Assembly (NCBI RefSeq): GCF_964204645.1
Contig: NC_134027.1
Location: 13,362,485-13,426,484, forward strand
DNA from: Tubulanus polymorphus
Taxonomy: Eukaryota > Animalia > Nemertea
DNA: 64,000 nucleotides
Direction of reading: 5' to 3'
The notes below the pieces were generated by a model that was not told the DNA's origin, did no database searches, and worked only from the letters and a program-made list of their open reading frames with translations. Positions 1,362 to 63,851 of the stretch are shown here, one piece after another. A program made the translations under genes and the position numbers. How positions within the stretch are numbered: the first letter of the stretch is position 1; every line of letters begins with the position of its first letter.

Positions 1362-3570
1362 TTAAATAATGCTAATCTTTTCTTTACTTATTCTATTTCT
1401 ATATGATTATGTTTTATAAAATAATCACGATTTTCTAGATTACTTAATTGTAAATATTAAGTACTCATATGTAAATTATTATAGTTTTCTGGGTTGCTAT
1501 TCTCTAAATTTTCATTGAACTTTCTTGTTTTTTCATCACCCCATGAAGTTTTTTTGATAACCTCATTCATTACAAAATATCGTAGAACTATCTTGGAATA
1601 AATTATTATGAATACATCTTGGACATTTATGTATATCATATTTTCTATTAGATGTGAGTCAAGTTTTTGATATTTGCTCACTTTTTTACGTTGTTTTTTT
1701 TATTTATTAAGTAGATTTTAATTACTTGCTGTAATAACCAACGTCCAATATTTACAATAATATGATTTTTGGTTTACCTATGTTATGGCTGTTGGTTTGC
1801 AGTCTGCCAATAGTATGTTAAATCGTGGCACAAAATTTAGTGGTAATACTTACGGCCGTTAAGCTTCGAACGGCCGATGCAATATTTTCGAGAAAAACGC
1901 GAAGAACATCGAAAACTCTTCGCTTTCTATAAGTAACTTGTGTTGACCTATATTTGTGTGTCGACACTTATATAAGGAATAGGATGAAAATGACGGGAGG
2001 CCACAAGAGAAAACAGATACGACGGACAAGAGAAGCGGGATTGGTAAGGGTGGGGAAAAAAGAAATAAAACAGGTTAGCCAGACTAGGAACCAACATCCA
2101 CCAAGATTACTTGCCCAGTTCACACGCATGGATGCCCGAAAACAAATGCGTGTTTCGTATGTTCGCCGTAGGTGACGCTGGTTTTCACTTAGGACATGGT
2201 CATATCTTAAGTGATACCATATCTCCCTGTGGCTCACATTTATATAAGGAATGGGATGAAAATGACAGGAGATAGCTCACAAGGGAAATAACACGTGGCG
2301 GGATGTGGAGGGTGCAATCGACCCCACTGACTCTCCCAAAACTCACAACAAGAAAAAAAATGAAAAAGACGTGGCTCACATATTATTATTTTTAGCCCAC
2401 TTGGGACTTTAACCTACTAGTTACCGCTTCAACGTCAATTAGAAAGCATAAAATTCTTTTGAATTTGTACATTTGCAGATGAAACATTTAACTGGCTTTC
2501 ACCAGAGAATAAATAAACCATAAATCAAGCAGAGACTTAAGTGACCAAAGGAAAAGAAAAAGGAAAATAGTTGATTTCCAAAAAAATTTAGAAATTTTTT
2601 AGATTATAGGAATTTTAAGTGTTCTCAGAGCATTTTTTGACCAGGAAAATGAATAAAAAATTGGAAATCCGTCGAAAAACGGAAGTCTTACATCTCTGAT
2701 CAAAGGGAGTTTTATTGAAAAAATCTAGACTTAATCAATGGGATACCGGCATCGCTACAGTGGCAAGCGATGATGCACTAGGATCGCTAGTGGCACTGGG
2801 TTACCGTGAATCAACTTCTCTCATTAGTTAATAAATTGACCATGGGCAAAGTGTGGTTTACCTTGAAAGTTAGAGGTTGTTTGGTGTAAGGGCTTTGCTT
2901 GAAAAAAACTTATTAATTCGTGAGTTCAAAGATCTAGAAGTTTATATTGTATTTTATCTTTCTTAAATAATCATTTTGTAGTCAAATAAGATCGAAGATA
3001 AACATTTGTTTATCGTCTTCGTCCAGAATATCGTAGGGTCCAAGTAGGCGCAGCAGCGGAAACTATTTTATATTTTCCAAAAAATATTTTTCACAATATG
3101 AAAAATTTTCAAATAAAATTCATATGATGTCACATATCAGGCTGAATATTGAGTTTTGGAAACGAAACCTCTTCCAATGTATAGCCGCAGAAGCTTAAAC
3201 ACCGGGCCGTAGTAATAGATCGTTTTAAATCCTGGAATTTACCACTACAATATTCAGACCTCGACTAATACCTATACTGCTTAGTATTTTCAGGTCACAA
3301 GAAATTACAATTTATAACAAATTCTATCAAACAGAAAACACAGCGCTCATCTTCTGCTACGACGATTATTCAGCCTTTTATTATATCAAACGTACACGCG
3401 CCAAGCAGCGTTACAGCATCACCATATAGTAGTCTGTATGAGCGTGTGTTTGTGAGTGCAACAGTCTAAGCACTCCGCGCACGTGGAGGCCTTGTGTAGT
3501 GAACGTTCGCTTTACTTCAATCTCAATCAACACAATCACCGGGTATTAAAATAAAACAATACCTATGGCG

Positions 3571-28322: not shown

Positions 28323-28359
28323 AATCATAATTTGGAATATGTTAGAATTTTGAATTGTG

Positions 28360-28489: not shown

Positions 28490-29406
28490 TTATCTTAATG
28501 AAGTGAATGTTGCTCTTGAAAATATTTTTGGAATATAATTTTCGATTTCAGTTTTAGATGGATGGTTATTTAAAAATTCTCTAAAATCATCATATTTAAG
28601 TTCAACTAAGTTCATTGCATAAGTTACATTTGGTTTAAAGTTATTTAACTTTTTCAATATGGTAACTATATCATTACTCGAGAAATAATCTATAAATGTT
28701 TTTCTATACCACCGATAATCTAATATATTCATTTGATTAAATTTTGGATTTATAATTAATGGATTTTCTATTACATTATCTGTACCTATATGTTTAATTG
28801 AGCATTTATGATTCAATTGTTTATCATATATTACATATTCTTTACATTTTTCACACCAAGATTTAAATACGTATATTGCATGGGCTGAATCATTTCCACC
28901 TTTTGTTTTTAATTTATAATGTTTTGCCCAATAAGCGTTTGATATACATTCATTACAGAAGGCACAATAATTTTGGTCTTCTTTGCATTTATCTTTACAT
29001 ATATTAGTATATATTTTTACTGATTGTAAAATATGTTCATCTTTTTTGACGTGCAATAAATGATCATTATTATTATCAAAATCTTCTTCACAATACACAC
29101 ATCTGATGTTATCTTCTATTTTAGATTCAACATTATCTTCTTTTTTTGTTTCAATATTATCTTCTATTTTTGTTTCAATATTCTTATTATTAGATGTAGA
29201 AGGTATATTATCTATATTATCATTATTATTATCTTTTTTATTTATATCATTATTACGTTCAATTAAATATTCTTTGTATTGATTTAATTCATTAAATAAA
29301 AATGTTCCAATATATTCATTTATTCTTTATAAGGTATTACATAATACAAATCATCATTGATTTCTTTATCAGCTTTGATTCTTTCATATAACTTACCTTC
29401 ATCCAT
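28490..29406 (-). pseudogene. Element-specific Cys/His-rich (zinc-finger) protein
   Basis: ORF 28490..29098 with CAFCNEC..HYKLKT, CEKCK..HKCSIKH; occupies the same slot as 13570..14358. Confidence 0.6.
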
Positions 29407-29438
29407 TCATTATAGAATTTTTTATTAAAACTGAAATT

Positions 29439-30686: not shown

Positions 30687-30710
30687 TTATTTAACAAAAA
30701 AATTAATTAT

Positions 30711-32447: not shown

Positions 32448-32464
32448 TTACATAATAAAGAAAA

Positions 32465-33764: not shown

Positions 33765-33780
33765 TTATATAATTAAAAAA

Positions 33781-34899
33781 TTAATAATTTATTGATTCTT
33801 TTAATAATTTATCTTGTTCTTCAACTGTTATATTACCATTTAAACTTATTATATAATCTAATGTATTTTTTAATTTATTAATTTCGTTTATATTAGATTT
33901 TATTTTTTCTTTATTACTTTTTATATTTAATTTTGAACTTATACCGGTTAATACACTTGAACTTAAACCTAACACACCAATTGATATAGCTAAAGGCGTT
34001 AATGGACTGAATATTGCTAGAAATGTTATAACGGAACTAAGTGTAACTGAACCACTAATAATAAAATAATATATAATTTTAGATTTTAAATATTTTTTCT
34101 TTTTTATCTTTAAGTCACTTTAAAATTCTAATATTTGTTTTTCCAAATATGATTTTAATTTAGTTTTATTTATATTATGAGGAATAATATTAATATTATC
34201 AACTTTATCATCCATTTATTTTGAAAAGAAATTACTAATTAGTAAATTTATATGCTACAAATATAACAATAACAGTTCCACCTAAAATCCAAATTATTTC
34301 ATATTTCTTCTGTTCACTACTTGGGATATAATAATCTGATATTGTAGGTTAATGTACATGTAATTTTTCTTTATTTGTTACTGCGTTGTATAAACTCATA
34401 GCTTCATCGACTGATTGTAAATCTCTATGTGAAATCTTCTGATCATATAATTCTTTATTGATGTAATCCATATAGTTTTGTCTTTTTTCTCTATATTCTT
34501 CTGCTGCTTTATTATATTTCTCTAATGCTAAATTATGTCTTTTTTGTTCTGATAATGATCAATTTTTATCAATATGCTTAATATCCACCACCAGTAAATG
34601 CCAAAGCGTTAACAATTGCTGACCCTATAATAGTTATAATTGCAGATGCCATTTATTTAGCAAAAAAATTATGCATTTATATAGGAGGAATATATTTCTG
34701 TTTTTCCTAAATAATCAATAGTTTAATTAGATAAAGTTACAGCTAATGTTAATTTTAAGATATCATTTATATCAAATCTATCAACATTAACACTTCCCAT
34801 TTTAAATACTTTTTTTAATACCATTGAATAACCAACAGTTCCAAATGATAGTAAGGCACCATTATATAATCCAGTTATTATCCACTTATTATCACTCAT
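33781..34899 (-). pseudogene. Three small hydrophobic viral genes (73-, 140- and 141-aa homologs), disrupted
   Basis: Starts at 34899, 34652 and 34215; reverse-complement homologs of 57480-58593. Confidence 0.75.
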
Positions 34900-35255
34900 T
34901 TATTTATCAAAAAATCACCTTCTTCAAAATATTTAGTTATATTATTTATGATTAATTCAACATTCATTTCATTACTACTTTCATTGGTATATATTTCAAT
35001 TATTATTTTTTTAATATCATCGATGATAAAATATTCATCTAATTCATAAAATCTTAATGACACTCTAATTAAATCAATAATCTTTTCTACATTAAAAGTT
35101 TCTTTATTTATTGTTTTTTTATACTCAAATGTTGTTTCATTAAAAAATGCAATATTCTTAATATGTGTAATTATATCATTAATGTTAAATTTCATTTCTT
35201 TCTCACGTTTAAAATCAAATCCAAAACATATACTCGGTCCTACTGTAATATTCAG
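34896..35255 (-). pseudogene. Homolog of the 113-aa viral protein
   Basis: VGPSICFGFDFKREKEMKFNIND... Confidence 0.65.
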
Positions 35256-35271
35256 TTATATAATGAAAGAA

Positions 35272-36026
35272 TTACTCTCTACATCATATAATTAATTCTT
35301 AAATTGCAGGAAAGTCATTCAAATCAATTAAATAACCATTATGATTTCTTATTTCTAATTTGAAATTATTGAAATGTGGAATGCATGGTTTAAATACGCA
35401 TTCTGTTAAATTATAATTAATTTGCGTTCCAAATTGTTTAACATTTTTTAATGGCAGAATATTTAATATACTAGAATTACAAATTACGTCTTTAGTTGCT
35501 TCGAATATTTTTGTTGGATCAATTAAATTGCAATAAATATGAAAATGCGTAAAAGGTATTATATTTGAGCTACCTCCTGCGTTTCCAGTAACAACATGCG
35601 GTTTAATTCCTAACATTTTAGCTACTGGTTTGTTAACCATACATTTAGGTTGATCATTAGCTATCTTTATTCTTATTTTATTAGAACTATCAATTTTATT
35701 AAATTTAATTTCAAATACAGAAGTACCACCGATTTTCAACCGAGCTCTTCTATTAATTTCCTGCGCTAATGATTCTAAATTATATAATCCTGGTTTTAAA
35801 AATAGATGATACCATTTATTTTTATTTCTCAAATAAACCATAAACCCTCTATGTTCGAAAGTTTTATCCGATATATTATAAAAGAATTACATAAACTTAC
35901 ATTTACTAATTTTAAATCAACACAATTCTTAAATTCTCTATCTAATTGTTCTAGTAAATTATGCGATTTAGAATTTAACAGTTTTCTTGAATCAACAAAT
36001 ATTCTATATTCTTTTAATTCTGCCAT
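35272..36026 (-). pseudogene. Putative minor capsid (penton) protein, frameshifted
   Basis: MAELKEYRIFVDSRK...KLEIRNHNGYLIDLNDFP. Confidence 0.75.
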
Positions 36027-36049
36027 TTATTTTACATATTTTTATATTA

Positions 36050-36413
36050 TTCAAAATCTATATCATGGTGCCCTTTTTCATTCTTACCCTTATATGTGAA
36101 ATAGAAATCACCTGAACATAATTATTCTAGATCTTCACTTGATATTCTATGAAATCTATCTGGTAAATATGTTCTGAATTTATATGTATTTCCTTTTAAT
36201 CCTTCATATTCTAAGTGGATAACTAATTTATCTCCATATTTGTTAGTAACTGTATCAATATTTGTAATTATATATTTCTTATGAATTGTTAATTCATTTA
36301 ACTTCTTGAATTTATAATCTACAGATTATAAATTAATCTACAGCATTTGTGATATCTTTGATTCTATCTAGAAATGATTTGTTGTTCTCACTGTGTACTT
36401 GTTAACTCTCCAT
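36050..36413 (-). pseudogene. TIR-embedded small protein, right copy of element 2
   Basis: Inverted homolog of 25254-25595. Confidence 0.7.
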
Positions 36414-40039: not shown

Positions 40040-41560
40040 AAACAAGATTTCTTCAGGATAAAAACTACGTCCAAATATCTGGCTAAAGTACTCCCCGGCT
40101 CTGGGTACTTTTTCTGATTCTCACATTCGGCACAATATGATTCTTTTAGACAAACTCAAAAATCTCAAACCTGATTGCCAAGAATTTATATCTTTCGACG
40201 CTATATCCTTGTTTACAAATATACCATTGGAACCAACTCTCAATTTATTAAGAAGAAATTACTCCCGGACTCCAATCTTGATCTCCCGATTCCTGTAGAT
40301 TGCTTACTTGAACTTTTGGAGCTCTGTACAACCAATCTATACTTCCAATTCAAAGACAATTTCTATGAACAAATTTTCGGTTTCGCTATGGGTAACCCAT
40401 AATCCCCCATTTTGGCTAATCTTTTCCTTGAACATTTTGAATCCGAAATTCTTCCCAATTACGCTGGCTCTAAACCTAACTTTTAGAGATGTGTTGATGA
40501 CATTCTGTGCTTAGTTTCTGATGATTTTGATCTTAACTCTTTTATTGACTTCATCAGCTCTCAATATCCATCTTTGAAATTCACATTTGAATGGGAACAA
40601 AATGACCAAATTCCGTTTTTAGATGTTCTAATCCACAATAAATACTCTCATTTGTTTTTTCAGTCTACCGTAAACCGATCAACGCTGAGGCATATCTCCA
40701 TTTCTTTTCGTTTACTGCTAAATCAATCAAAATTGGTCTCGCTCAAGGCCTCTTTCTCCGTGGACTGCAGATCTGCGATGAAACCTTCCTTTCGGCTGAA
40801 TTTGACCATATATCCAACTCTCTTAAAAAATTGGCTTACCCTGATCACATTTTGAAAATCGCTATTTCTAAGGCTAAACGTACTTTCTTTAACTCTAAAC
40901 CTCCAAAAAATAAAAAACACATTTCAGAATTCATTGTAGTTCCGTATGTACCTGTTTTGGAAAAGTTTCGTCACTCTCTCCCTTAAATGGATAAACAAAT
41001 CATTTTCACGTATGAAAACAAAATTAGCAAGACTTTGGTAAAAAACAATCAATCTAAACCTTTGGACTGCGGAGTTTACGAAATTCCATGTTTTGGCTGT
41101 GATAAAATGTACTTTGGAGAAACTGGTCGTGATTTAAAAACTCGAATTTCGGAACACAAAAAGGATATAATAAATCAAAAACCGGCTAGTGGCGTAGCCA
41201 ATCACGTTTGGAACACTGATCATCGTTTTAATTTTGAAAGCCGAAATTATTTATACTTCCAGCAATTACACTAAACGCCACACAGTTGAGTCTGCCCTAA
41301 TTACTCGTCACTCAGATATTAGTACCAATCTAAATAATGGCTTTTCTTCCAACAATTCCATTACTCCATGCCTTGCCAAACACTAATTAGTTACTCACTC
41401 ACCAATTTACTCAATTAACCTGTTCTCCTCTTTATATATACCCCTGTTTTTAGTCAATATCTCACACCTGACGATGATCTCTAGTGTGAGATTGAAACGT
41501 CGTGTTCTTAAATTTTAGATTGTTTCAATAAATAATTCTCGATTTTAGATTTCTTTTAAT
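40040..41560 (+). mobile_element. Penelope-like retroelement, 5'-truncated and decayed (RT + GIY-YIG)
   Basis: SFDAISLFTNIP, FYEQIFGFAMGNP, RCVDD, KFTFEWEQNDQIPFLDVLI; GVYEIPCFGCDKMYFGETGRDLKTRISEH; TATA at 41431 and AATAAA at 41527. Confidence 0.92.
41464..41505 (+). ncRNA. Minimal type I hammerhead ribozyme in the Penelope pseudo-LTR
   Basis: acac-CTGACGA-t-gatctc/tagtgt/gagatt-GAAAC-GTC-gtgt: conserved core, stems I and II, palindromic ACGT in place of stem III. Confidence 0.85.
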
Positions 41561-48056: not shown

Positions 48057-50861
48057 TCATCAGCCGGCCGCAGTGACACCAACGCCGACATCGCTCTCTG
48101 CGACGTTTTGCATGCGTACATGCATCAGAGCTTGCCGCTCTAAGATCAGAGGGTCTTGCAAATGCATTCAGAAAAATCGTTCTGTTTTTGTTTTCATTAT
48201 TCAGTGGGGCCTAACAGTTCATGCGTAAAAATAGGTTTTTGTATCCAAATCTTGATTGATATAAATATCTTGGCTGAGACATGAATAATTGGAAAAGTAG
48301 GCTTTCATACCAGAGGACGCGAGGACGAGACACCACTCATCACCACAAGTAATTTTTTTTCCTAATAAATGGGAGAGAATGGACACCAGACAGAAAACAA
48401 TAATGTTAATAAAAATCAATATTATTGCACATATTGTAAAAAATACATCGATACATCTAATAAAACACGACATGAAAAAACTGCAAATCATATAAAAAAT
48501 GTAATAGATTTTGAAACTCCAGAAAATTCCAATGAAAGAAAAGAAAGATTAGAAAATATGAATGTGGATGAAATAAAATGTGAAGTTTGTAATGAATTTA
48601 TAGTAAAAAGGAATTATAATAGACATCTCGAATCACAAAAACATTATAAAAATTTAAATAAAAATGTTTTAGTAAAAAAACCAAGTTCAAAAACTAAATC
48701 CATTTCAAATAAACCTTACATGGAAAATGTTAGAAATTATATTGATTCATTAGAAATAAAAGATACAATTGAAATTTTAGAAACATTACGCAGTAAAATT
48801 GGTCCTGCAGCTATTATATTTAGATTTTTTAAAGGTACAACAATAGAAGATTATAGTAAATTTAATGAAATAATAGAAAAAATACTAGATTTGATAACAG
48901 ATGTTGAATATCCAAAAATTAGTATCTCTGGGAAAGTAAGTTTTATAAAGTCAGAAGAAAAAATGGATTATAATATTCAAACACTCTCTGAAGAAATAAT
49001 TTCAAAAACACAAATAAAAGAGAAGTTAGAAAAAATATTTAATGAATTTAAACGTCAAAATGACAAAATGATTGAATTAGAAAGTGATTTTGCAAAATTA
49101 TTAAACAAAAATAAAAGAATAGTTATGACAAAAGAAGATGAAATTGATTTTAATTATGCAACTCATTGTTGTTATTGTGAAAAACGTTTTTATTCATTTG
49201 ATAAAAAAGTTAGAGATCATGATCATTTAAATTCAAAATATCGTGGAGCTGCTCATGAAGATTGCAATTTACAAGCTAAGAAAGTTAATTTCGTACCAAT
49301 ATTATTTCATAATTTATCAGGCTATGATACCCATCTATTTATAAAACAATTATCGGGAAAATTGGGTGCAATTAATCAAGAAATAGAAGAATATAATGCT
49401 ATGAATGGTGTAAATGTAAGAAAATATGATTTTAAACTATTAGCTAAAACATCCGAAAATTATATTTCATTTCAATTTGGTTGCATTAGATTTTTAGATT
49501 CTTATAGATTTCTAGCAAGTTCATTAGATTATTTATCAAAAAGTTTAGTTGATAATGATTTTGTTATAACTCGATATTATTATCCAAATGAACAAGATTT
49601 TAAATTATTGAGATATGAAGGCGCAATTCCTTATTCATTTTATAAAACACACAATGATTTTAATGTAACAGAATTATTAAAAGATCAATTTTATGATCAA
49701 TTAAAAGAGGAGTATGTGAAAGACGAAGTGTTTAATAGAACATTAAATATTTGGAGCCATTTTAAGATGAAAAATCATGGTGAATTAGTTGATTTATATT
49801 TAAAATCAGATGTTATGATATTGGCTGACATATTTGAAAAATTTAGAGAAGTTAATTTGAATCATTTTAATGTTGATCCTTGTTATTGCTACTCTAGTCC
49901 TGGTTTAACCTGGCAATGTGGTTTAAAATATACAAATGTAGAATTAGATTTATTAAAAGAACCAGATATGGTTTTATTATTTGAAAAATCAATTAGAGGT
50001 GGAATTAGTGGTGTTATGGGTGATAGATATTTTAAAGCAAATGATGAATATAAATTATTATATATTGATGCCAATAATTTATATGGTTGGGCAATGATGC
50101 AACCCCAACCATACAAAAATTTTATATTAACAGAAGTTGAAAATGATAACAAAACTGATTGGGAAAGCGCAATTGCGAGTTTAAAAGATGAAGCACCAAT
50201 TGGTTATTTCTTTGTAGTTGATTTAGAATATCCTGAAAATATAAAGTTTAAAACAAGAAACTTACCTTATTGCCCAGAACATTTAACCGTAGATGATAGT
50301 TATTTAAGTGAATACCAGAAGAAAATAAAACCGAAAGATCATGATTTTACAGAAAAATTAATACTTACTCAAAATAATAAATACAATTATATTGTTCATT
50401 ATAGAATGTTAAAATTTTATCTAAAGCAAGGAATGAAATTAAAGAAAGTACATAGATATATTGAATTTAATCAATCGAAGTGGTTAGAAAAAATATATAG
50501 ATTTCAATACTCAACAGAGAACCATATCAAAAACAGATTTTGAAAAAGATTTCTTCAAATTAATGAACAATAGTTTTTATGGTAAAACATGCGAAAATAT
50601 TAGAAATAGAAATGATATTGAATTAGTAAATAATTCTGAAAGATTAAGACATTTACAATCAAGTCCTAGACATTTAGGAAAAAAAGATTTGAAGATTATT
50701 TCACAGCAGTTAAATTAAAAAGAACGTCAATGAAATTTAATAAACCTATATTCATTGGTTCAACTGTTTTAGAAGTATCAAAATTATTAATGTATGATTT
50801 TTATTATAATGTTTTTCAACCACTTTTTGGGGAAAAGCATATTGAAATATTATATTTTGAT

Positions 50862-51926
50862 TCTGTAACAGCTGACACCCCAATATTATTAAAATGTAAT
50901 GATAAAATATTAATTAGAAGAATTTCAGAAATAATTCCAAAACAAAATGAATGTTATATTTCATATGGTGAAAAAGAATTAATACAAATAAATGGATTAA
51001 TGGATGTTTGGACAAGAAATGGATGGAAAAAATTAAAGAATATTATTAGACATAAAACAAATAAGAAAATCTATAGAGTTAGAACTAAATTAGGATTTGT
51101 AGATGTTACAGAAGATCATAGTTTAATTAAACGAAATGGCGATGAAATAAAACCAACTGATATAAAAATTGGAGACGAATTATTACATAAAAGATTTTTC
51201 CAAAGAATGAATCATATGACATTCGATGAAATTATTGATAATATTTATAATATAGAACCCGAAACATTAGAAGAAAAAGAATATTTTATCAAAGGATTTT
51301 TTATGGGAGATGGTTCAGCAGGTGTGTATAAATATGTTAATCGCACTCAATATCGTTGGTATTTATGCAATCAAGATTTGAAATTATTAGAAAGAATAAA
51401 GAAATTCTGCGAAGAAGTTTATTCACATAAAACATTTAGAATCATGGATCATATGAAATCATCCGCGGTTTATAGAATATTTGTAAATAATCCTAAAAAT
51501 TTTGCTACAAAATATAATGATGAATTCTATATTCATGCAATAGTGAAAAGTAATACTTCAACAAAAGAAAAGATAGTTCCAGATTATGTATTAAATGCAA
51601 AAATTAATTTAAGAAAATGGTTCTTCATTGGGTTCTATGCTGCAGATGGTTTAAAAAGTTTCAAAAACCGCAAAACGATATCTTTAGCTCAAAAAGGAAA
51701 AGTTGCTATATCAGGATTGAATATATTATGCAATTCATTAGGTTTTAATATGAATATTGGATTGATTAAATCTAAACCAAATTGCTTTTATTTAAGCCAT
51801 GTAGAAAATGAGTTAACAGAAGAAGTTAAAGATTTATTTGAAATATATAACCCAACAGATTATGTTTATGATTTATCAACTGAAGATGGTACATTTAACT
51901 GTGGATTTCCATTAATAGCGGTCAAT
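50862..51926 (+). mobile_element. Intein (355 aa) with LAGLIDADG-type homing endonuclease
   Basis: Block A SVTADTPILL, block B VDVTEDHSL, FIKGFFMGDGS and FFIGFYAADG, block F YVYDLSTEDGTF, terminal AVN followed by +1 Thr; removal restores YFDTDSY as in 19420..19767. Confidence 0.95.
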
Positions 51927-52368
51927 ACTGACAGTTACATACTAAAAATCAAGACAAATGATATAACAAAAGACTTAAAAACATTAAAACATCATTTTGA
52001 TTTTAGCAATTATCCCAAAGATCATGAACTATTTAGCAATGATAATAAAAAGATTCCTGGTAAATTTAAAGATGAATTAGGGGGTGATGAAATGATTGAA
52101 TTTGTTGGGATAAGAAGTAAAATGTATAGTTATAGAACAAAAGATCATGAAGCTAAAAAGTTAAAAGGAATAACAAAACATGTGGTTGATAAACATATAG
52201 AATTTCAAGATTATATAAAGTGCTTATATAACTCAATTGTAATGAAACACAAAATGAATTGTTTAAGATCAGAAGATCACGAGATATACATTAATGAAGT
52301 TGAAAAAACTAGTTTGAATCCATTTGATGATAAAAGGCATATTTTAGATGATGGAATAAAAACATTAC

Positions 52369-52849
52369 TATTCTGCCCGTGCGGCAGATAGCGAACCGGA
52401 AACCGACGAAAACGCAAACAAACAGGCAATTCCGGAGAAGTCTGTATTTATTGATACGCCGTCGATTCGAGACGGTAAAAAACTGAAATAACAGAGATAA
52501 TTTTAATTATTAACTGAAACGACTAAATAAACTAAATCTCAGGACAATGAATAAAGGATAAATGCTTACACTGTACGTGGGCAAGTTCCAAGGTAGATAC
52601 GCGAAGAGATACAGATACGCGGATGTATGGAAGATTTTCCTAGTTACAGCAAGTATTAGCAGACAATAAAAATAGACACGTATACGGAAGTAAACAAACT
52701 CCGGGGAACTAAAAAATACGTATATAGACTCTGGAGCTAAACCGCGGTTACAGACTCACTAAACTGACTGTATAAAAAAGTGTAGATCTCACTACAGACA
52801 AGCACTAAATCTAAATGCATGCATAACGATGTAACCATGTTACAGCACA
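52369..52849. mobile_element. Probable solo LTR (481 bp) with 5-bp TSD
   Basis: ATTAC duplicated at 52364-52368 and 52850-52854; ends tattctg...cagcaca; removal restores KTLPYGY*. Confidence 0.75.
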
Positions 52850-53012
52850 ATTACCTTATGGTTATTAAAACATAAAATCAATATCATCGAACTCGAAATC
52901 ACTATTGGCTTCTTCATTTTTATTTAATTGTTTAGGTTCTTCTTCCATTTCATTTTTCTCATTTAAATAAAGTTCTATCTTGTTCCACATTTCATCTCGC
53001 TCTCTTTGTTTC

Positions 53013-53063
53013 TTTTTTGATGGGTTTCGTCGTCAGACGAACCCATCTATGGCATCGTCGTCA

Positions 53064-53107
<44 letters not shown>

Positions 53108-53130
53108 GATGTTTCTTTATGACACGATTT
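53013..53130 (+). mobile_element. DINE-1/HINE-like (Helentron-associated) fragment
   Basis: T-run, hairpin gatgggtttcgtc-gtca-gacgaacccatc, then (GTCT)n/GTCC microsatellite. Confidence 0.55.
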
Positions 53131-54949
53131 AAGCTGTTTGTGTGGACCGACAATTCTGTAATTTCACACAGGTATTCTCTACTTGATGTAGATGGTGCAG
53201 CTTGGTTTATATTTGATTCCGATGGTTATAAGTGCTCTAATTTGGTTAAAAGATAATTAACGTTACTCGCTAGTTCAAGCCGCTGTATAGCGCGTTGCTA
53301 CGACGACGCTCGATCAACATACTGGTACTCGCTGTGTAATACTGAACACGTGATCGTACTAGCACCGGTTTTAGATAGCGCGCGCGCTGATCGGTCTTAA
53401 CACTTCTCGGAACTGCTGTGCTAAATGCTGATAGGCCGAATCTATGCGCAATCATTTATTGGGCTCGTCACATTTGATAGTGAATGGATAAATAACCGGT
53501 GTCAATGACGGTCGCTACTCCCCATCAGTATAACTCATCAGTATAAGAAATAATTCTTTCGAGTTTTTTTTTTCAATCCCCGAAGTTGTTGTTACTATGT
53601 TGACCTCGCCGTTTTATAAGCTTACCGATGATTCTTCTAGTATTTTCAGGGTCACAAGACATGACGAAGTCGCAAAGTTTTGTACAAATTTCACGAAACA
53701 AACAATTATTTAGGCGGCACCTGATCTATTGATTAATTATGATAAATAATGTTTATTTCATTAAAAATTTGTTTTATTCAAACACTACTTTCATCGCACA
53801 TAGCGTGATCGGTAGGCCCTACTATTCTACGGTAGGCCATGGACTCTTTCATGTGGTAGGCCTATTACAAATGATACAATCCGCGTGTCCGTGAATAAGT
53901 GACACGTGGTGGGGCGGGTTGTGAGGAGCATCGAAACTAATCCGTCACAAATAATAGATAGAAAACAATACCTTAAGTGGTTAACTTTTATTAACATCAT
54001 TACCAAATCAAAACCTGCACATCCTATCATAAATAGAAATTCTAAGAATTCATTTCAAAGAATAATAAATTACGTCTAAATTTTGGGATTCGAACTCGTA
54101 GCATCGATTCAGGTGCCTTTCCCAAAGCGGGTATCCCGCGGGGAAAACCCATTACTATTTATATCGAGAATCGCCTTTTTGCGACAGCGCCACGGCGCTG
54201 GAGCATATTAAGTTGATCGAACCACCTGGTGTCTTCCAATACCACCACCTAGTGGGCTCAAATTCAAGTTCAAATATACTTTATTGATACTCATCAAATA
54301 TACTTAATTGTTACTTTATTCAATACTTTATTGTTCCCAGTACGGCAAATACATCGGATTTCCGCAATTAAGTAGACAGAACACAAATAAAATCAAGAAT
54401 CTTTTAGTATTCAGAAAACAACGTACATGTTATTTTTCAATTTTAATTAGCAATGAGATAATTTTTTGCGACACTCACGGATGATGCGCATTCCCTTTCT
54501 GGAAGGCTGATCGGCTCTTCCCTGAAAAATTAATTTCTGAATCGACGTCCCGTAATGATGAATACTATTTTTAGATCCCCTGATTTCAAAATTCAAAAAT
54601 ATAGATTTATATGAACCTTAGGGGTACCCTTGTAATTAACAAATTATTCGAAAGCAAAGATCTTGCATTTTAAGCATTTTCTTTATTTCAAGCCGCCGAA
54701 TTGATTGTCTAAATCTCTTTGCTCTTCTCGGAACTTGTATTCAATTAAATTTTCTATTCTCATTCTACAATTTGTACATGAATACTATCAACGGTAGCAT
54801 TTGTTTCTTTTCATTTCGTTTTTCATAATGATTTTGTAATATTTAAATCTTCATTTTATCGCGACGGGTGCTTCCGCTTTTAAACTGTTCGTTTGTTACT
54901 TCCGATTTTGTAATCTTCTTTAATTTATTCATTCTTTATGACTTCTCTC

Positions 54950-56291
54950 TCTCCAAAATCGGAATAATTGTATCCTTAGATACAATAGGATCTTGATTTT
55001 TAATGACTTTGCAAAACCATCTGTCGCAGTATATTTCCTTTTAGAAATATACCTTGTTGACAGCGAGTTCGGTGAATGAAACAGAAACAATTACACAGAA
55101 ACCCATCATGGAAAGTTTCTTTCTGGTGTTTGTTAATTCATCAAATGGAATTATAATATCTAGGTTTAAATAATTTACAATCTTATTTAAAAAGAATTCA
55201 TAATTTATTGAATCTGTTATTCTATTTTCCAAATAATACATTATTATTTGTTTGAATATTTTTTTTATATTTTTCATATCTTCTTCTGTTAATTTAGGTT
55301 TTTCATAATAATCGTTAAATAATAAATATAAATACATTTTCTTTTGTTTTGTGTTAAATGTTGACGGAATAATTGTTTTTATAATATCTTTTTTTGTTAT
55401 TTCACCATTTTTATTTTCTATCATTTTCATTTTTTCAAGCCATTGCATATATTCTGGTGTATGATCTTCTATAGAAAATATTTTAAAAATTTCATCAAGA
55501 TAATTTAATTTTGGATCTATGAGAAAATTTCTAGTTTTTTCTTCACCCAATAAATTCTTTTGCCATCCACATTCATTACAAAATAACACAGTACCTTCTT
55601 GCCCTAAGGTCGTATAACTACATTGTGGACATTTTCGTTTATAATTTATTGGTAATAGATCTTCATTAAGCTCTTGGTATTTTCTTACGTTTTCTTTATG
55701 TTTTATTGTTCTATTATGTAGATTTGAATTACTTGTTGTAATAATCAATTTACAATATTTACAATAATATGTTTTTCTTGTTAATTCATTATATTGTTTT
55801 TCTAACTTTTCAACTGTTTCCTTATTATCTGGTAACGTTTTCTCATATTTTATTTTTTCTAATAAATTATTTTTTCTTTCATTGAATTCAGTTTCAAATT
55901 TATTAGAAATTTTATCTATATGTGCTTTACGAAATTGATGATTCTCCCAATCTTCTATATTTTCAGGGTTATATTTTATTCAACAAGGCTTACAGAAATG
56001 ATCTTTTATATTATCCTTGTCATAGAATAAGAAAGGTCTTTTCCAAATAATTTCAGGTTCAACTTCAACAGAATTACTATTACTTTCATTACTATCAACA
56101 TTAGCCGTTGCACCATTAATTTTACACTTCTCTGAATGTTTTTTAACATAATTTCTTGAGAATAGTTTATTACATTTTGGGCAGTTTAGTTTAGGGGGTT
56201 TATAATTTTCTTCATGTTTTTTCATATGTCGAGCCATATTACTTTTTCTTAGAAGTTCACCACAAATTTCGCATGCTATCTTCTCATCCAT
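54950..56291 (-). pseudogene. Multi-C2H2 zinc-finger protein fused to a VLTF3-like late transcription factor domain
   Basis: 55980..56291 and 55041..55748 are in frame across one TGA; CPQC..FCNECG zinc ribbon; IFKQI...SINYEFFLNKIVNYL resembles the VLTF3 NY.Y.L.K motif; 3' end approximate. Confidence 0.6.
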
Positions 56292-56359
56292 TTATTTAGG
56301 AAAAATTTTATTAAAATTAATTTTTAGTGATGAGCGGTAATTTTTTTATGTTATAAATA

Positions 56360-57121
56360 ATGGTAGAATTAAAAGAATACAGAATATTTGTTGATTCTAG
56401 AAAACTTACAAATTATAAATCACATAATTTACTAGTACAATTAGATAGAGAATTTAAGAATTGTGTAGATTTAAAATTAGTTAATATAAGTTTATGTAAT
56501 TCTTTTTATAATATATCGAATAAAACTATTGAACATAGAGCCTTTTTAATTTTTGATAAAGGTAAAAATGAATGGTCCTATATATATTTAAAACCGGGGT
56601 TATATAATTTAGATACATTAGCACAAGAAATTAATAGAAAAGCCTGGCACAAGTTAGGTAGTAGTTCTGGGTTTAGTATTAGATTTTTAAAAAGTGAGAG
56701 TTCTGATAGAATAAAGATAAGGTTGTCTAATAGTGAAAAACATAAATTTATGGTAAAAAAACCTATAGCTAAACTGTTAGGAATTCTTCCAGATAGATCT
56801 TTTAAAAATATTGACGCTACTACACCAAACTTAATACCTTACACACATTTCTATATTTATTGCAATTTAATCGATCCTACAAAAACATTCGAAGCAACTA
56901 AAGATATAACTTGTAATTCTGGTTTACTAAACATTTTACCATTGAAGAATGTTAAAGAATTTGGAACGCAAATAAATTATAATTTAACAGAATGTGATTT
57001 CAAACCTTGTATTCCACATTTCAATAATTTTAAATTAGAAATAAGAAATCATAATGGTTATTTAATTGATTTGAATAACTTTCCTGTAATTTATGAATTA
57101 GTTATAAGATGTAAAGAGTAA
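56360..57121 (+). CDS. Putative minor capsid (penton) protein
   Basis: IFVDSR...LDREFKNCVDLKLVNISLCNSFYNI and KLEIRNHNGYLIDLN fit single jelly-roll penton patterns of Polinton-like and large DNA viruses. Confidence 0.75.
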   Translation: MVELKEYRIFVDSRKLTNYKSHNLLVQLDREFKNCVDLKLVNISLCNSFYNISNKTIEHRAFLIFDKGKNEWSYIYLKPGLYNLDTLAQEINRKAWHKLGSSSGFSIRFLKSESSDRIKIRLSNSEKHKFMVKKPIAKLLGILPDRSFKNIDATTPNLIPYTHFYIYCNLIDPTKTFEATKDITCNSGLLNILPLKNVKEFGTQINYNLTECDFKPCIPHFNNFKLEIRNHNGYLIDLNNFPVIYELVIRCKE

Positions 57122-57137
57122 TTTTTTCACTGTATAA

Positions 57138-57479
57138 ATGAATAGAACTGTTGGACCGAGTATATGTTTTGGATTTGATTTTAAACGTGAGAAAGAAATA
57201 AGAATTAAACTAAATGATGTAATTACTGATATAAAAAGTAAATCATTTAACAATGCATCAATGATTAATAAAGAAAATTATAATATAGAAAAAGTAATTG
57301 ATTTAATTAAATCACCTTTAAAATATTATGAATTAAATGAAGATGGAATTATTGATGATATTAAAAACATATTAACCGAAATATATGATAATCATAAAAG
57401 TAATAATGAAATAAATGTTGATTTAATCATAAATAAGTTAACTAAATATTTTGATGATAGTAATTTTTTTGATAAATAA
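57138..57479 (+). CDS. Conserved hypothetical viral protein (113 aa)
   Basis: Intact; homologs in elements 1 and 2. Confidence 0.75.
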   Translation: MNRTVGPSICFGFDFKREKEIRIKLNDVITDIKSKSFNNASMINKENYNIEKVIDLIKSPLKYYELNEDGIIDDIKNILTEIYDNHKSNNEINVDLIINKLTKYFDDSNFFDK

Positions 57480-57701
57480 ATGAGTGATAAAAAGTGGATA
57501 ATAACTGGATTATATAATGGAGCATTACTATCAGTTGGAACTGTTGGTTACTCAATGGTATTAAAAAAAGTATTTAAAATGGGAAGTGTTAATGTTGATA
57601 GATTTGATATAAATGATATTTTAAAATTAACATTAGCAGTTACTTTATCTAATTTAACTATTGATTATTTAGAAAAACAAAAATATATTCCTCCCATATA
57701 A
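57480..57701 (+). CDS. Small hydrophobic viral protein (73 aa)
   Basis: Intact, conserved in three copies. Confidence 0.8.
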   Translation: MSDKKWIITGLYNGALLSVGTVGYSMVLKKVFKMGSVNVDRFDINDILKLTLAVTLSNLTIDYLEKQKYIPPI

Positions 57702-57725
57702 ATGCGTAATTATTTTACTAAATAA

Positions 57726-58148
57726 ATGGCTTCTGCAATTATAACTATTATAGGATCGGCAATTGTTAACGCTTTAGCATTTACTGGTGGCGGTTATTTA
57801 TTTAAGCATATTGATAAAAATAGTTCATTAGGAGAACAAAGAAGACATAATTTAGCATTAGAGAAATATAATAAAGCAGCAGAAGAATACAGAGAAAAGA
57901 GACAAAACTATATGGATTACATCAATAAAGAATTATATGATCAGAAGATTTCACATAGAGATTTTCAATCAGTTGATGATGCAATGAGTTTATATAACGC
58001 GGTAACCAATAAAGAAAAATTACATCTATACAAACCTAAATTATCAGATTATGATACCCCAAGTAAAGAACAACAGAAATATGAAATAATATGGATTTTA
58101 GGTGGAACAGTTATTGTTATATTTGTAGCATATAAATTTAATAATTAG
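57726..58148 (+). CDS. Viral protein with hydrophobic termini and coiled-coil (140 aa)
   Basis: Intact; C-terminal TM IIWILGGTVIVIFVAY. Confidence 0.8.
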   Translation: MASAIITIIGSAIVNALAFTGGGYLFKHIDKNSSLGEQRRHNLALEKYNKAAEEYREKRQNYMDYINKELYDQKISHRDFQSVDDAMSLYNAVTNKEKLHLYKPKLSDYDTPSKEQQKYEIIWILGGTVIVIFVAYKFNN

Positions 58149-58167
58149 TAATTTTTTTTCTAAATAA

Positions 58168-58593
58168 ATGGAAGATAATATTGATATTATTCCTCATGAT
58201 ATAAATAAAACTAAATTAAAAATATATTTAGAAAAACAAATATTAGAATTTGAAAGTGACTTAAAAGTTAAAAAGAAAAAATATCTAAAAAGTAAAATTA
58301 TATATTATTTGATTATAAGTGGTTCGGTTACAATTAGTTCTGTAATAACATTTCTAGCAATATTCAGTCCATTAACACCTTTAGCTATATCAATTGGTGT
58401 GTTAGGATTAAGTTCAAGTGCTTTAACTGGTATAAGTTCAAAATTAAATATAAAAAGTAATAAAGAAAAAATTAAAACTAATATAAAAGAAATTAATAAA
58501 TTAAAGAACACACTAGATTATATAATAAGTTTAAATGGCCATATAACAGTTGAAGAACAAGATAAATTATTAAAAGAATTAATAAATTATTAA
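58168..58593 (+). CDS. Two-TM viral protein (141 aa)
   Basis: Intact; hydrophobic hairpin flanked by basic helices. Confidence 0.8.
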   Translation: MEDNIDIIPHDINKTKLKIYLEKQILEFESDLKVKKKKYLKSKIIYYLIISGSVTISSVITFLAIFSPLTPLAISIGVLGLSSSALTGISSKLNIKSNKEKIKTNIKEINKLKNTLDYIISLNGHITVEEQDKLLKELINY

Positions 58594-58609
58594 TTTTTTA
58601 ATTATATAA

Positions 58610-59999
58610 ATGGTAGATAGTTTTCCAAAAGCTTTCCAATATAATAAATCAATTAAATATAATATTCCAGCCATAGATTTTAATAAAGATATTACATATA
58701 GAAATGAAGTTTTAGATTCATTAACTAATTTAGAAATTTATGTTACTGAAACTAATAATTTTAATGCAAAGATGGAAAATATATTTCATGTATATTTAAT
58801 TAATTTTAAAAAATTGAAAGATGAAAAACAATGGTTATTAAAATCTAATATGAAGTATTGGCAGAACCAATTAAATTTTGCTGTTTATTGTGCAACAACA
58901 GGTTGTGGAATTAGTTGGAATGATCATTTGAATAATTCTAAATATAAATTAATTCAAAGTTTATTTAGATTTCATACATACTTTCAAATCAGAATAATAT
59001 TAAATGAATTAGAGTGCGCTTTACCAGGATCTAGATATTTTAAAAAATTAGATAATAATATTAATTTATCAAAGTTTTATAAAATTTGTAATGAATTTAA
59101 TATAGATATAAATAATTCTGATATTAGAACAAAAATTGGAACAATAAGATCACTTCCTTGCCCTAAACAGATTGCAGAATATTGTGCACTTCCCATACCA
59201 TCTAATAGTTTTTATAATATCTATAATAATAAATTAGGTTATGGTAAAATAGAAACAAAGGATTTAGAAACATTAAATTTCAATAAATTACCGAAATTTT
59301 ATGATCATTTAAAACAAGAAAACAATAATGGTTGGGTTTATTTCATTTTAGAAAATAATGAAGGTTTTACAAAATCAGGTATACAAAGAATAAATCAATC
59401 TATTAGAACTTATTTGATATGTATTCTAGGTGCACAAGTTGAAACAAGATCACCGATAATTGGAAATTTGAATACATCATTCGATACACAAAAACAATTT
59501 AAAGTATTATTTGAAGATTCAATTCATAATGATAAAAATAGATCGATTCCAGAAAACATTGTAAGATATCAAAATTATTTAGATAAATCACATATTAGAT
59601 TAAATTATTGTATAGGCCCTAATCTATTAATTATTTCTAATGATTTAGTATTAAAGATGGGAAATATAATTGGTTATAATAATCTAATTAAAACTGCAAC
59701 AATAAATAATTCATTTGGATTGAATGATATAAATAAAAAGATAATTACTGCTCCAAAATTAATGGAAGTTGAATAAAATAAAAAACATATTCAATCAATA
59801 GAAACTAAAACTAAGAATATTAAATTGGATAATGATTCCAAAATAAAAGATTACAATACTATAGAAAATATTAAAACTGATAATATTCAACATGATATAA
59901 TTAAAACTGATAATGATAATAAATTACATGAAAATACTAAATTAGCTTTAACTTGTATAGGAATTGTTATAGGAGGAATATTATATTTTAAATTTTAAT
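58610..59999 (+). pseudogene. Conserved viral protein, 388-aa ORF with premature stop before the TM tail
   Basis: Tail ...ALTCIGIVIGGILYFKF continues past the stop at 59776, as in 9878..10840. Confidence 0.8.
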
Positions 60000-60014
60000 T
60001 TTTTTATTATATAA

Positions 60015-61466
60015 ATGGATGTAGAAGGTGGAGAAGATATTGGAATGGATAATTTTGATGAACCTGGTATAACTCATGAACAACCACCTGATTTTGATGA
60101 AACAAGTTTCAGTAACGAAAATGAAACAGCATATAATTCTAATTTAGCAAGACCTGATACTAATGAATATGTTAATAAAGCACGTTCAAGATTGGACATT
60201 GAAAATGAAAATCCAGATTTAATGAAAAAAGAACTAGAATATGACGAATTAACTGATAAATTCAAACCAATATTAGAAAAATCTGGATTCAATATAACAA
60301 ATAAAGGTGTGAATTATTTAGTAAAAGATTTGAAATATTTAAATGGTGATTATTATTGGCATTTGAAAGATGACTATTATTTTAAGATATCTTCTAATAA
60401 AAGTCTCGATAAAATAATAACAAAACCAACTTTAATTAAATTAGAACAATCTAGAATTAAGAAAATCAACAATGATGTTATAACTGATGTTACAGAACAA
60501 GAGATTAATCAAAATAGAAGAGAATTTAATCGAAGAAATAATGATTTTTTGAAGATAATTAGTGAAAATTTAGAACCAGAAACAATTCCTAAAGAAGATA
60601 TAACTTCCAAAACTAGTAAACTTAAATCAAATAAAGTTCAAACTGAAAAACTTTTACCGAAGGCATAACTTGATGCTACAAAACAAGAATTAGAAGATTT
60701 AGATATATTTTCTGGTAAAGCAATAAGAGAAATTGAAAGTATAAGACATGCATCTGATAAAATTGCGCATGAAAAAGAAATAAGAGATATTAAAATCAGA
60801 TTTTTAGAAAAAGAATTAACTGATAAAAATAAAGAAATAGAACAATTAAAGTCTGATTTAGATCATCAAGTAATTGATGAAATAGAATATAGGCAAAAAG
60901 AATTACGTTTAGAAAAAGAAAAAGATGATTTAGAATATAACATAGAATTACAAAAAGAAGAAATTAAATTATTATTAAAATCATATGATTATAATATAAA
61001 TAGATTAAAAGATGTTTTTAAAAGATATCTAATAAAACCAAATTCTAAAATATCATTGAAAGATAGAATGAAATTATTATTTAAGTTTAAAGGAATCACA
61101 ATTCTTTCAATTCTAACAACTGTAACTATGTTATTTACAACAATAGGTTTAACAATATCAAATGCTTTGAAATCTACTCCTACTCCCAATAAACCAGATA
61201 AACCCCCGAATGATAATAATTCTATACAAGATAAAGATAAAGATGGTTTAAAGAAATTAGCAAAATATTTATGGGAACTATCTAAAAAATCTGCTGCAGC
61301 TTTACCAGGAATTATTGCATCAATTGTTGGTTTTATACTGGGAATATTCTTAACTTTGCTGCTGAACATATTATTTTATTTTTAATTACAATTGTAAGTG
61401 CTATTATTTTTGGGTTAGTGAATATGATATCAAAAAGATATCAAGAAAAAAATAATAAAAAATAAA
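60015..61466 (+). pseudogene. Acidic / coiled-coil / hydrophobic-tail viral protein, disrupted
   Basis: ORFs 60015..60668 and 61056..61385. Confidence 0.75.
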
Positions 61467-61489
61467 TAATTAATTTTTTTGTTAAATAA

Positions 61490-62735
61490 ATGAGTGGGAG
61501 TTATATAAGTCGTTCTAAGATTTCTAGAATATCTAATGCTATTAAAGCAGAAAGATCACATCATATAATTACTCATAATCCTTCAAATATTAATCCCGAT
61601 GAAACTTTATATGTTAGAATTCCTAGATTAACACAAAATACTTTTTATGTTCCCAATAGTATTTATTTATCAGCTGATATAAAAGTAATTGGTCATGATA
61701 ATAATTATGTTGTTGATAATGTTGGGAGATATTTGATTAAAAAATTAACTATAAAGATTGGTCCAGAAACAGTTTTCTCATTAGATGATTATAATTTATT
61801 TATGCATTATAAAGATTTATGGTTAACTAAAGAAAATAGAAATAATATGATATTTCAAGGAATCCAATCAGAAAACCATAATAAATTAAGATCCGGAGCT
61901 AATGACGCAATAGTAACTCGTGCCACAGATAATTTGATTAAAAAGATTTATGGAAGCAAATATAAAATTCCATTAGACTTTGAATTGATAAATAATAATG
62001 CACTTTTATATAAATACGCAATTCAAGAAGATATTATATTTGAGATAAAATTTGCTCCTGTAAATGAAATTGTATTATCTAGCGTTGTTAAAGATATGGG
62101 TTATAAATTATCGAATATATGTTTAGAATATGACACAGTAACTAATGAAAATATTGCTAGCACAATTCAAACTCAATACAATCAAGGATTTTCATTATTA
62201 TATGATTATATTGATAAATTTAAAACTGTAACTATTAATGCAAATGATAAAATAATTAATGAGAATATTAACTTCCCAAGAAGATCTATTAAAGGTATAT
62301 TAATATTTTTTACCATTGCAACACAACATATACTAATGGCGCAATAAAGGTAGATAATTAATATAATCCTGAAATAACAAAAGTAGAAATAACTATCGAA
62401 GGAATAGCAAATAAAATATTATGTCAAGGAATGAGAATGACTGATCAATGGCCAGAAATTAGAAAACATTTTATGAATGAAAAAGTAAAATCATTTGAAA
62501 ATTGTAATATTAATCAAATTGATTATTATACCGGCAATAAATATGCATTATGGTTAGAACAACAGAGGATAATTCATTACATGGTTCTGGAAAAAAACTA
62601 CAGAACACTAAAGATGGAATACAATTATTCATGAAAAAGATAAGAGGAGACAAAAATTTTAAAATGCACATTTATATTATATCTGATGCCCAATTAAATA
62701 TTGTAAATTCACAATTAGATAGTATTCAATATTAG
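61490..62735 (+). pseudogene. Putative major capsid protein, frameshifted
   Basis: Near identical to 12280-13537. Confidence 0.75.
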
Positions 62736-62765: not shown

Positions 62766-63851
62766 ATGGGAGGTAAAAAAACTACTAATACTAAAGAACA
62801 ATATTTAAGAAATTTATATTACAACCCTGAGAGTTCGGTTGCTTATTCTTCTACCAAAAATATATGGCGCCAAGTAAAACAAGATAAATTAGATAAGATA
62901 ATCCCACATTTAGTTAAATATAAAGATATAAATGAATTTATGTTAGAACAACCAACATATACAACACATAAAAAAATTGTTAGAAAATATAAAACTCGTA
63001 AAACTATGGTAAGTTATGTATATCAACAGTGGCAAGGAGATTTAATTGATATGAAAAATGTTAAGAAAGATAATGATGATTATTGGTGGTTATTGAATAT
63101 AATTGATATTTTTAGTCGTTATGTATGGAGTTTCCCACTTTATAGAAAAGATGCTGTACAAACATCAAATGTTTTAAGAAAATTTCTTTCGGATGATAAA
63201 CTAAAACCAGAAAAAATACAATTTGATGATGGAAAAGAGTTTGATAATTCACTTGTTCATGAACTCTTAGATAATCATAATATTAAATATTTTTCAACAA
63301 AATCGGATAAAAAAGCAGCAGTTGTTGAACGATTTAATAGAACATTAAGAACAAGAATGTGGAAATATTTTACAGCAAATAATACTTTTAAATGGATTGA
63401 TGTTTTACCAAAATTGATAGAAGGATATAATAATTCTTATCATTCTTCTATTGGAATGAAACCTATTGATGCTAGAAAACCTGAAAATGCTGAAATTGTT
63501 TGGAATAATTTATATGGAGCATTTCTTGTAGATGATTTTGGTGAACCTAAATTTAAAGTTGGTCTAAATGTTAGAATTTCTAAGTATAAAAAGATATTTG
63601 GTAAAGGATACGATCGAAATTTTACTAGAGAAATATATGAAATAAAAAAGGTAATAACAACAAAACCATATGTCTACTTTTATGAAGAAGAATTAAGTTT
63701 AACTACAGAAAATCTAGAACAAGAATATAAAATTGAAAAAGTATTAAAAACAAAAACTATTAAAAGAAAAAAATATTCTTTAGTAAAATGGGTTGGATGG
63801 CCAGATAAATTCAATGAATGGATATTGTCAAGTAAAATTAAAAATATATAA
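62766..63851 (+). CDS. RVE integrase with C-terminal chromodomain
   Basis: WQGDLIDM, IDIFSRY, QFDDGKEF, VERFNRTLR; YKIEKVLK...LVKWVGWPDKFNEWI; small in-frame deletion near 63675. Confidence 0.95.
   Translation: MGGKKTTNTKEQYLRNLYYNPESSVAYSSTKNIWRQVKQDKLDKIIPHLVKYKDINEFMLEQPTYTTHKKIVRKYKTRKTMVSYVYQQWQGDLIDMKNVKKDNDDYWWLLNIIDIFSRYVWSFPLYRKDAVQTSNVLRKFLSDDKLKPEKIQFDDGKEFDNSLVHELLDNHNIKYFSTKSDKKAAVVERFNRTLRTRMWKYFTANNTFKWIDVLPKLIEGYNNSYHSSIGMKPIDARKPENAEIVWNNLYGAFLVDDFGEPKFKVGLNVRISKYKKIFGKGYDRNFTREIYEIKKVITTKPYVYFYEEELSLTTENLEQEYKIEKVLKTKTIKRKKYSLVKWVGWPDKFNEWILSSKIKNI

Follow-up and report, generated by a model that had tools for sequence, protein, structure and literature searches.

A zinc-finger-bearing VLTF3-like gene and poxvirus-late-type promoters in Polinton elements of the nemertean Tubulanus polymorphus

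Homologues of the late transcription factor VLTF3 have been reported in stony-coral polintoviruses, where they were credited to Krupovic and Koonin 2016 (PMC11131425), and VLTF3 also appears in the figure keys of a study of MELD viruses under the label 'VLTF' (PMC8502044) and in Polinton-like groups (10.64898/2026.06.19.733378). The presence of VLTF3 in a Polinton is thus not new in itself and has already been published (PMC11131425). However, VLTF3 was stated elsewhere to be not detectable outside Nucleocytoviricota (PMC11253617), so its occurrence in Polintons is not settled even among specialists. Gene transfer from egoviruses to Polintons has been reported as well (10.1101/2024.03.23.586382). 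The element described here, element C, is similar to the coral polintoviruses and MELD viruses in being a Polinton-class element with a very probable VLTF3 homologue, while no finger fusion, promoter motif or helper was described for them in the portions of the two reports covered, the comparison being one of descriptions (PMC11131425; PMC8502044).

Previous work showed that the late promoter of the helper virus is located upstream of all Mavirus genes (PMC6723459). Mavirus, which has an integrase and a protein-primed polymerase, and Sputnik are comparable to element C in carrying a large-virus late promoter before their genes, replication genes included, whereas they have a protist host and an Imitervirales helper and element C has a poxvirus-type motif and its own late factor (PMC6723459). 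Polinton-like viruses also occur in entomopoxvirus occlusion bodies (PMC11296320) and, as in the reading of element C given below, these are Polinton-type elements proposed to be hyperparasites of animal poxviruses. The main text of that paper makes no mention of promoter, motif, transcription, VLTF or intein, and the covered parts of two further sources (10.64898/2026.10.13.758929; PMC12945077) contain nothing on the VLTF3-like gene or on these promoters. Literature searches of incomplete coverage brought up, among the papers listed, nothing on poxvirus late promoters in the Polintons of animals.

The window, i.e., the whole stretch of 64,000 nucleotides analysed here (contig NC_134027.1, positions 13,362,485 to 13,426,484), consists of repeat-rich DNA of 35-40% GC alternating with gene-dense blocks of 22-25% GC. 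The gene-dense blocks are related Polinton-type elements, including a relic (about 1240-1780), element A (about 7100-23450), element B (about 25300-36340) and element C, which runs from about 48300 past the window end. An intein-bearing polymerase gene, a capsid module and an rve integrase make up element C together with the VLTF3-like gene, which lies on the strand opposite to the polymerase gene. The polymerase gene (48369..52391, plus strand) is in pieces, encodes U1-type fingers at its N-terminus, is convergent with the VLTF3-like gene, and is collinear at 58-82% with the intact 1336-aa polymerase of a homologous contig (L001). Pfam scans of 34 open reading frames of the window gave no direct match of this polymerase to DNA_pol_B_2, and PF03175 was found in polymerase relatives that bear the same intein. 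Judged from these sequences, element C possesses the protein-primed DNA polymerase B that characterizes Polintons/Mavericks (Polintoviricetes). The capsid module (56360..62347, plus strand) ends with a putative major capsid gene (61490-62347), and the capsid genes match Capsid_N and DUF5901 (both E 0.003), both under the Pfam cut-off. A retroviral-type integrase with a chromodomain and a TAAATG start (62766..63851, plus strand) matches rve above the cut-off (E 2e-10).

The capsid module of sister element A is about 80-96% identical to that of element C, in a different gene order and together with an intein-free polymerase. Element B spans about 11 kb between 295-bp inverted repeats and carries capsid and integrase genes with only a short polymerase fragment, and it is possibly non-autonomous. 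A gene of about 130 codons without a Pfam family lies inside the terminal repeats of both elements (23207-23602 and 36043-36311). Orphan Cys/His-rich genes, mutually dissimilar, follow the major capsid gene at the same position in A and B (13570-14358 and 28490-29326), and this position is a variable cargo slot. As well, an 11-bp tandem array (14395-14710) separates the convergent halves of element A, and a 1.2-kb compound microsatellite (23520-24773) lies between A and B. An open reading frame adjoining the end of the element A polymerase (18678-19001) has no Pfam match, and we take it to resemble a giant-virus endonuclease; a frameshifted fragment at 40487-40986, also without a Pfam match, presumably resembles a reverse-transcriptase retroelement.

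The VLTF3-like gene starts at the ATG at 56291 on the minus strand and, as the original prediction held, forms a single frame broken by one TGA (55980-55982). This premature stop is private to this copy or to few copies, as 221 of 229 reads of run X5, one of several runs of raw short reads under the same species label, differ in the codon. The 5' piece (55983..56291, minus strand) encodes a C2H2 finger (aa 7-26, Pfam zf-C2H2 E 4e-5), a C2HC finger (aa 37-56) and the first half of a C2-H2 finger (aa 100-124) that extends across the stop. The middle piece (55127..55979, minus strand) continues with the rest of this third finger, a coiled segment, a U1-type finger (aa 174-205, Pfam zf-U1 above cut-off), a zinc ribbon and the helical VLTF3 domain. 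The ribbon is of CxxC-x13-CxxC type (CxxC-x13-CxxCG, aa 221-242; 55569..55631, minus strand) and aligns to the A2L ribbon of poxvirus VLTF-3, and SINYEFFLNKI (55179..55211, minus strand) is the best-conserved VLTF3 motif. The true 3' piece (52865..53016, minus strand), placed by homology to a natural relative (P0002) and by the domain profile, encodes the last VLTF3 helix, an acidic tail and the stop codon. The order of the protein is therefore four fingers (C2H2, C2HC, C2-H2 and U1-type), C4 ribbon, helical domain and acidic tail, and the C2H2-like fingers, the ribbon and the motif that had been predicted are all borne out by the sequence and by Pfam zf-C2H2 and zf-U1.

An HMMER search with the C-terminal part against 1.84 billion representatives retrieved two proteins, P0002 (E 1.5e-35; 41-43% identity) and P0003 (E 1.6e-15; 30% identity). 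Both are intact and collinear with the window protein, and the alignment covers the fingers and the sequence before and after the stop, so the two pieces in element C belong to one gene. The gene for P0002 lies on contig L001 and converges with that of the 1336-aa polymerase, tail to tail as in element C. On this contig, the VLTF3-like and polymerase genes meet stop codon to stop codon with zero spacer (2135-2140), leaving no room for separate 3' signals. The homologous gene on the AT-rich contig L002 has two in-frame copies of a GC-rich direct repeat (671-693 and 1505-1527, read DAAGGSGA). Only three distinct homologue lineages were found. Word-seeded searches yielded no homologue among 4125 candidates for the read-through protein or among 2191 for the domain alignment, and viral contigs scanned with the domain, the alignment, the capsid and the polymerase yielded no relative. 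A lineage-specific pattern gave four matches, one being an unrelated 1738-aa open reading frame and the other three lacking the in-frame motif, and searches of a phage collection, PHROGs and PDB sequences returned nothing meaningful.

The 3' part of the gene differs from the original prediction, in which the gene ended near 54950 and contained a short insert near 55040-55115. The insert is really 2,110 bp long (53017-55126), as seen from the gap in homology and from X5 reads, and what had been translated below about 55126 belongs to the transposon. The alignment to P0002 breaks off at about 55116 and restarts at 53014-52877, and when the window was scored in six frames against the end of the domain profile, the piece at 52865-53016 was the only further sequence with a high score (11.0 bits; next, -2.5). 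Moreover, 177 X5 reads (87 start sites) join 53016 directly to 55127, and contigs of runs X2 and X3, which derive from one sample, carry the same joint.

The insert (53017..55126, plus strand) is a non-autonomous transposon of the Helentron/DINE-1 type, as indicated by X5 reads and by comparison of its features with those described in PMC4067079. Similar to DINE-1/HINE Helentrons, it has subterminal inverted repeats, an internal 5' inverted repeat forming a hairpin, a TGTC microsatellite and a T-rich target site without duplication (PMC4067079), and it is dispersed, since 296 and 497 reads exit its two ends into other flanks. Unlike the published elements (PMC4067079), as far as their description is covered here, it is 2.1 kb long, has a weak 3' stem-loop and contains a nested second insert of 878 bp (54179..55056) with a 3-bp repeat on its flanks that is skipped by 334 X5 reads. 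A further 486-bp insert (52364..52849) lies at the polymerase 3' end, between the ends of both convergent genes, and is skipped by 151 X5 reads. A second, more decayed relic of the VLTF3-like gene (1514..1769, minus strand; 74% nucleotide identity), identified by sequence match, adjoins a polymerase 3' end at 1244-1348.

The VLTF3-like copy in element C is thus decayed, and most sister copies have neither the insert nor the stop, these breaks being counted site by site in short reads. Read depth over the VLTF3-like gene is 198-284. It falls to about 19-21 in the bins of lowest coverage and reaches 622 where the capsid module begins, and 335 reads run from the first capsid-module gene into a flank seen in elements A and B; therefore, about one third to one half of capsid-module copies have the VLTF3-like gene alongside. 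In six-frame profile scans of the window, the gene was detected only in element C and the relic and not in element A, which has kept the promoter motif. VLTF3 accordingly looks optional, and element A seems to manage without VLTF3 in cis.

The identification of the protein as a VLTF3 homologue, which the original prediction had proposed, is very probable from profile-profile, language-model and fold evidence, on which Pfam Pox_VLTF3 itself is silent. Pox_VLTF3 and A2L_zn_ribbon matched none of six proteins even at E 10, while reference sequences score 143-188 bits, and the element C protein is on its sequence best filed as a remote VLTF3 homologue and not as a Pfam-level member. In hhalign, the three-sequence domain alignment matched 23 poxvirus A2 sequences at 97.4% over 190 columns and 69 giant-virus VLTF3 sequences at 96.0% over 176 columns, with merely 66.6% between the two reference sets themselves. 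The shared motif was then masked, because the pox set had been fished with the window's motif, and values of 93.0% (pox) and 93.8% (giant-virus) were obtained. The window sequence upstream of the motif also outscores every one of 500 shuffles against the pox profile, while L001 is no better than shuffles on the giant-virus profile. For the pox references, a degenerate form of the window motif located 117 loci in viral contigs, of which 23 distinct ones were kept (22 full-length proteins of 224-228 aa and one divergent fragment) after chance matches and other fragments were dropped; for the giant-virus references, a short motif located 120 loci, and 69 distinct open reading frames of at least 280 aa were kept. 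All seven references tested, sampled from both sets, are Pfam Pox_VLTF3.

In the ESM Atlas, the Pox_VLTF3 set makes up 27 of 30 matches for the window domain (top 0.96), a query whose recognition lies under the tool's threshold, and 26 of 30 for P0002 (0.93). The original prediction had also suggested comparing structures with VLTF3 and TFIIB-like folds. The AlphaFold model of the intact L001 domain (pLDDT 75.7; the single-sequence model of the window's own domain is poor, pLDDT 46) retrieved annotated VLTF3 late factors at ranks 1-3 of a Foldseek search of BFVD, namely two entomopoxvirus late factors and cowpox VLTF3 (E 2e-5 to 2e-4, TM 0.52-0.61), with many giant-virus VLTF3 below them. Against PDB the same model found nothing at E 0.001, and archaeal TFB, the TFIIB-like comparison, stood at ranks 4-5 as weak matches (E 0.94-1.3, TM 0.17). 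All three lineages have the zinc ribbon, aligned to the A2L ribbon, before the helical domain. With poxvirus A2/VLTF-3 and NCLDV VLTF3 (PF04947, PF08792), the element C protein thus shares a zinc ribbon followed by a helical domain over about 190 collinear residues, an [IVL]NYxF[FY]LxxI motif and a C-terminal W helix. It differs from them in its identity of about 20%, which is under Pfam detection, in an N-terminal extension of about 215 residues that carries four zinc fingers, in an acidic tail, and in being encoded by a Polinton.

The comparisons do not single out a donor of the gene, and a specifically poxviral origin, which was considered, is not adopted. A tree of 35 rows (three Polinton, 10 of the 23 pox and 22 of the 69 giant-virus sequences), built without entomopoxvirus, asfarvirus, iridovirus or egovirus sequences, is a three-way star of groups on long stems of similar length, and the masked hhalign scores are equal for the two sets. 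The identity to pox VLTF3 is 18-22% and that to giant-virus VLTF3 is 18%, and the pox profile gives 37 bits against 8 bits for the giant-virus profile, the pox set having been fished with the window's motif.

In vaccinia late promoters, according to previous studies, TAAAT sits on the start codon and mostly continues with G, and a T located ten bases further upstream, surrounded by other Ts, is conserved (PMC11980589; also PMC5294985), and a TAAAT motif was reported at ranavirus polymerase genes too (PMC5294985). When aligned on TAAAT, 11 of 11 starts picked from the element C list of open reading frames, eight of them from the capsid module, show TAA at -16..-14, T at -10 within a T-tract and A at -1, one start having been shifted by three bases after inspection. 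In ten of the 11, TAAAT runs into the ATG and continues with G. These include the start of the VLTF3-like gene (TAA, T-tract, TAAATG; 56289..56310, minus strand). The eleventh is that of the first capsid-module gene (56338..56362, plus strand), divergent from it, where TAAATA stands three bases before the ATG and the T-tract has moved equally, so that the spacing of the promoter follows TAAAT and not the start codon. The 11 starts thus match in sequence the vaccinia-type late promoter, which has TAAAT(G/A) at the start codon and, within a T-tract, a T at -10.

The strict promoter pattern has 20 matches in the window, 16 of which stand at gene starts in elements A, B and C, whose promoters are homologous and hence not independent, and one match stands at the L001 gene. 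A scan of spacings gave 19 matches at the right spacing (gap 7) and 1-12 at others (12 at gap 3), and the same scan is flat in 112 kb of AT-rich giant-virus DNA. In a mechanical, blind count the promoter was present at 9 of 14 starts in element C and at 3 of 11 in A and 2 of 7 in B, where the starts counted are those of decayed frames; all three starts in L001 and L002 are TAAATG, compared with 20 of 68 starts in poxvirus loci and 5 of 87 in AT-rich giant-virus loci. The TAAATG starts named in the original prediction are therefore real and far above chance (9/14 vs 5/87, Fisher p 1.5e-6), and the co-occurrence of TAAATG with VLTF3, for which a survey had been proposed, extends to L001 and L002 (3/3), as surveyed in those contigs and the window.

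The element C polymerase also carries a 355-aa intein with a LAGLIDADG domain at the YFD/TDS motif (50862..51926, plus strand), identified by Pfam and alignment and absent from the polymerases of L001 and element A. The original prediction had called this intein giant-virus-like and regarded it, together with the TAAATG starts, as agreeing with a helper virus. The intein is real and the TAAATG starts do agree; its closest relatives, however, sit in other protein-primed polymerases (62%, 49% and 48%), followed by RNA-primed family B polymerases (at most 41%) and topoisomerases. Consequently, the intein adds little to the helper reading, and it was discarded as a pointer to a particular helper. 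Homing endonuclease or intein insertions in Polinton polymerases are already known (PMC11161782).

The reading we favour, with a probability of roughly 0.55, is that a poxvirus-like helper virus transcribes the element and that VLTF3 from intact sister copies, an optional component, would recruit the helper polymerase to the element promoters. That the element redirects or competes for the late transcription of a helper had been predicted, and this gains from gene starts that match the vaccinia late consensus at a fixed spacing, from which we still infer the helper itself. The simplest account would be the Mavirus model with a poxvirus-type helper, in which all genes, the polymerase gene included, are under the helper's late promoter. 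An integrated copy would be released, or would re-infect, upon co-infection with the helper, and the helper's late machinery would start inside TAAAT, as in vaccinia. The VLTF3 of the element may then join or replace the helper's A2-like factor and bias transcription toward the element, while its zinc fingers may grip element DNA within the helper's late complex. It would be an accessory factor, since it is not detectable in a sister element whose promoters are the same.

A VLTF3 gene alone does not imply a helper, because mriyaviruses, which are considered nuclear, retain VLTF2 and VLTF3 but have no RNA polymerase of their own (PMC11253617). Pfam scans of 34 open reading frames of the window showed no VLTF2, which likewise weighs against a helper, and no poxvirus polymerase subunit. 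By analogy with mriyaviruses, although we consider it unlikely, element C may be autonomous and nuclear, its VLTF3 working with host RNA polymerase II, reading the TAA-T-tract-TAAAT sequence and switching on the virion genes. The added fingers could confer sequence-specific DNA binding, the VLTF3-like gene is divergent from the capsid module across a shared 68-bp bidirectional spacer, and sisters without VLTF3 could be supplied with it in trans. However, a TAAAT that overlaps the start codon leaves no ordinary distance from TATA to start, and a T at -3 is a poor translation context unless slippage adds a poly(A) leader, which also counts against autonomous nuclear expression. Moreover, the motif fits the vaccinia consensus down to the T at -10, and the polymerase and VLTF3 genes would themselves need the same promoter, leaving no early trigger.

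Still more doubtful is the proposal that the element depends on a helper while its VLTF3 acts as a decoy, poisoning or titrating the helper's late complex and thereby limiting the helper. It draws on the same promoter evidence as the recruiting role, and some Polinton-like viruses suppress their helpers (PMC12945077). The optional occurrence of VLTF3 among sisters, as seen in the depth of about one third to one half of that of the first capsid-module gene and in the 335 reads with a different flank, and its great divergence from pox A2 (about 20%) are compatible with such a role as well. Nevertheless, a block of late transcription would hit the element as well, whose own promoters are of the late type and would fall silent, and the ribbon, the core motif and the C-terminal helix have all been retained. 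It is quite improbable that the VLTF3-like gene is passenger cargo acquired when the element long ago exchanged genes with a large DNA virus, and that the motif is only an AT-rich stop-spacer-start convention, as might be supposed from the decay of the element C copy and the relic, the three of 11 upstream TAAs that double as stop codons and the score of 12 at gap 3 against 19 at gap 7, given that intact, collinear homologues exist at 43% and 30% identity, that the motif also precedes three genes without an upstream neighbour on their own strand, and that 16 of 20 strict matches stand at gene starts.

The mode of gene expression in animal Polintons and their dependence on a helper virus are in question, and no Maverick-Polinton virion is on record in the literature covered. 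With an exact vaccinia-type late promoter at each gene start examined and a late factor besides, the helper question becomes accessible to simple tests, and transcription by a poxvirus-like helper would extend the Mavirus model to animals and to poxvirus-like helpers. With the odds somewhat against it, this animal Polinton lineage could more broadly represent endogenous virophages of poxvirus-type viruses, with all genes on a poxvirus late promoter and some members using a finger-armed VLTF3 to reprogram the helper. If true, element C would encode a parasite's own adapter for the RNA polymerase of another virus, and the lineage would be the trace, left in the genome, of a poxvirus-like virus that this host is not yet known to carry.
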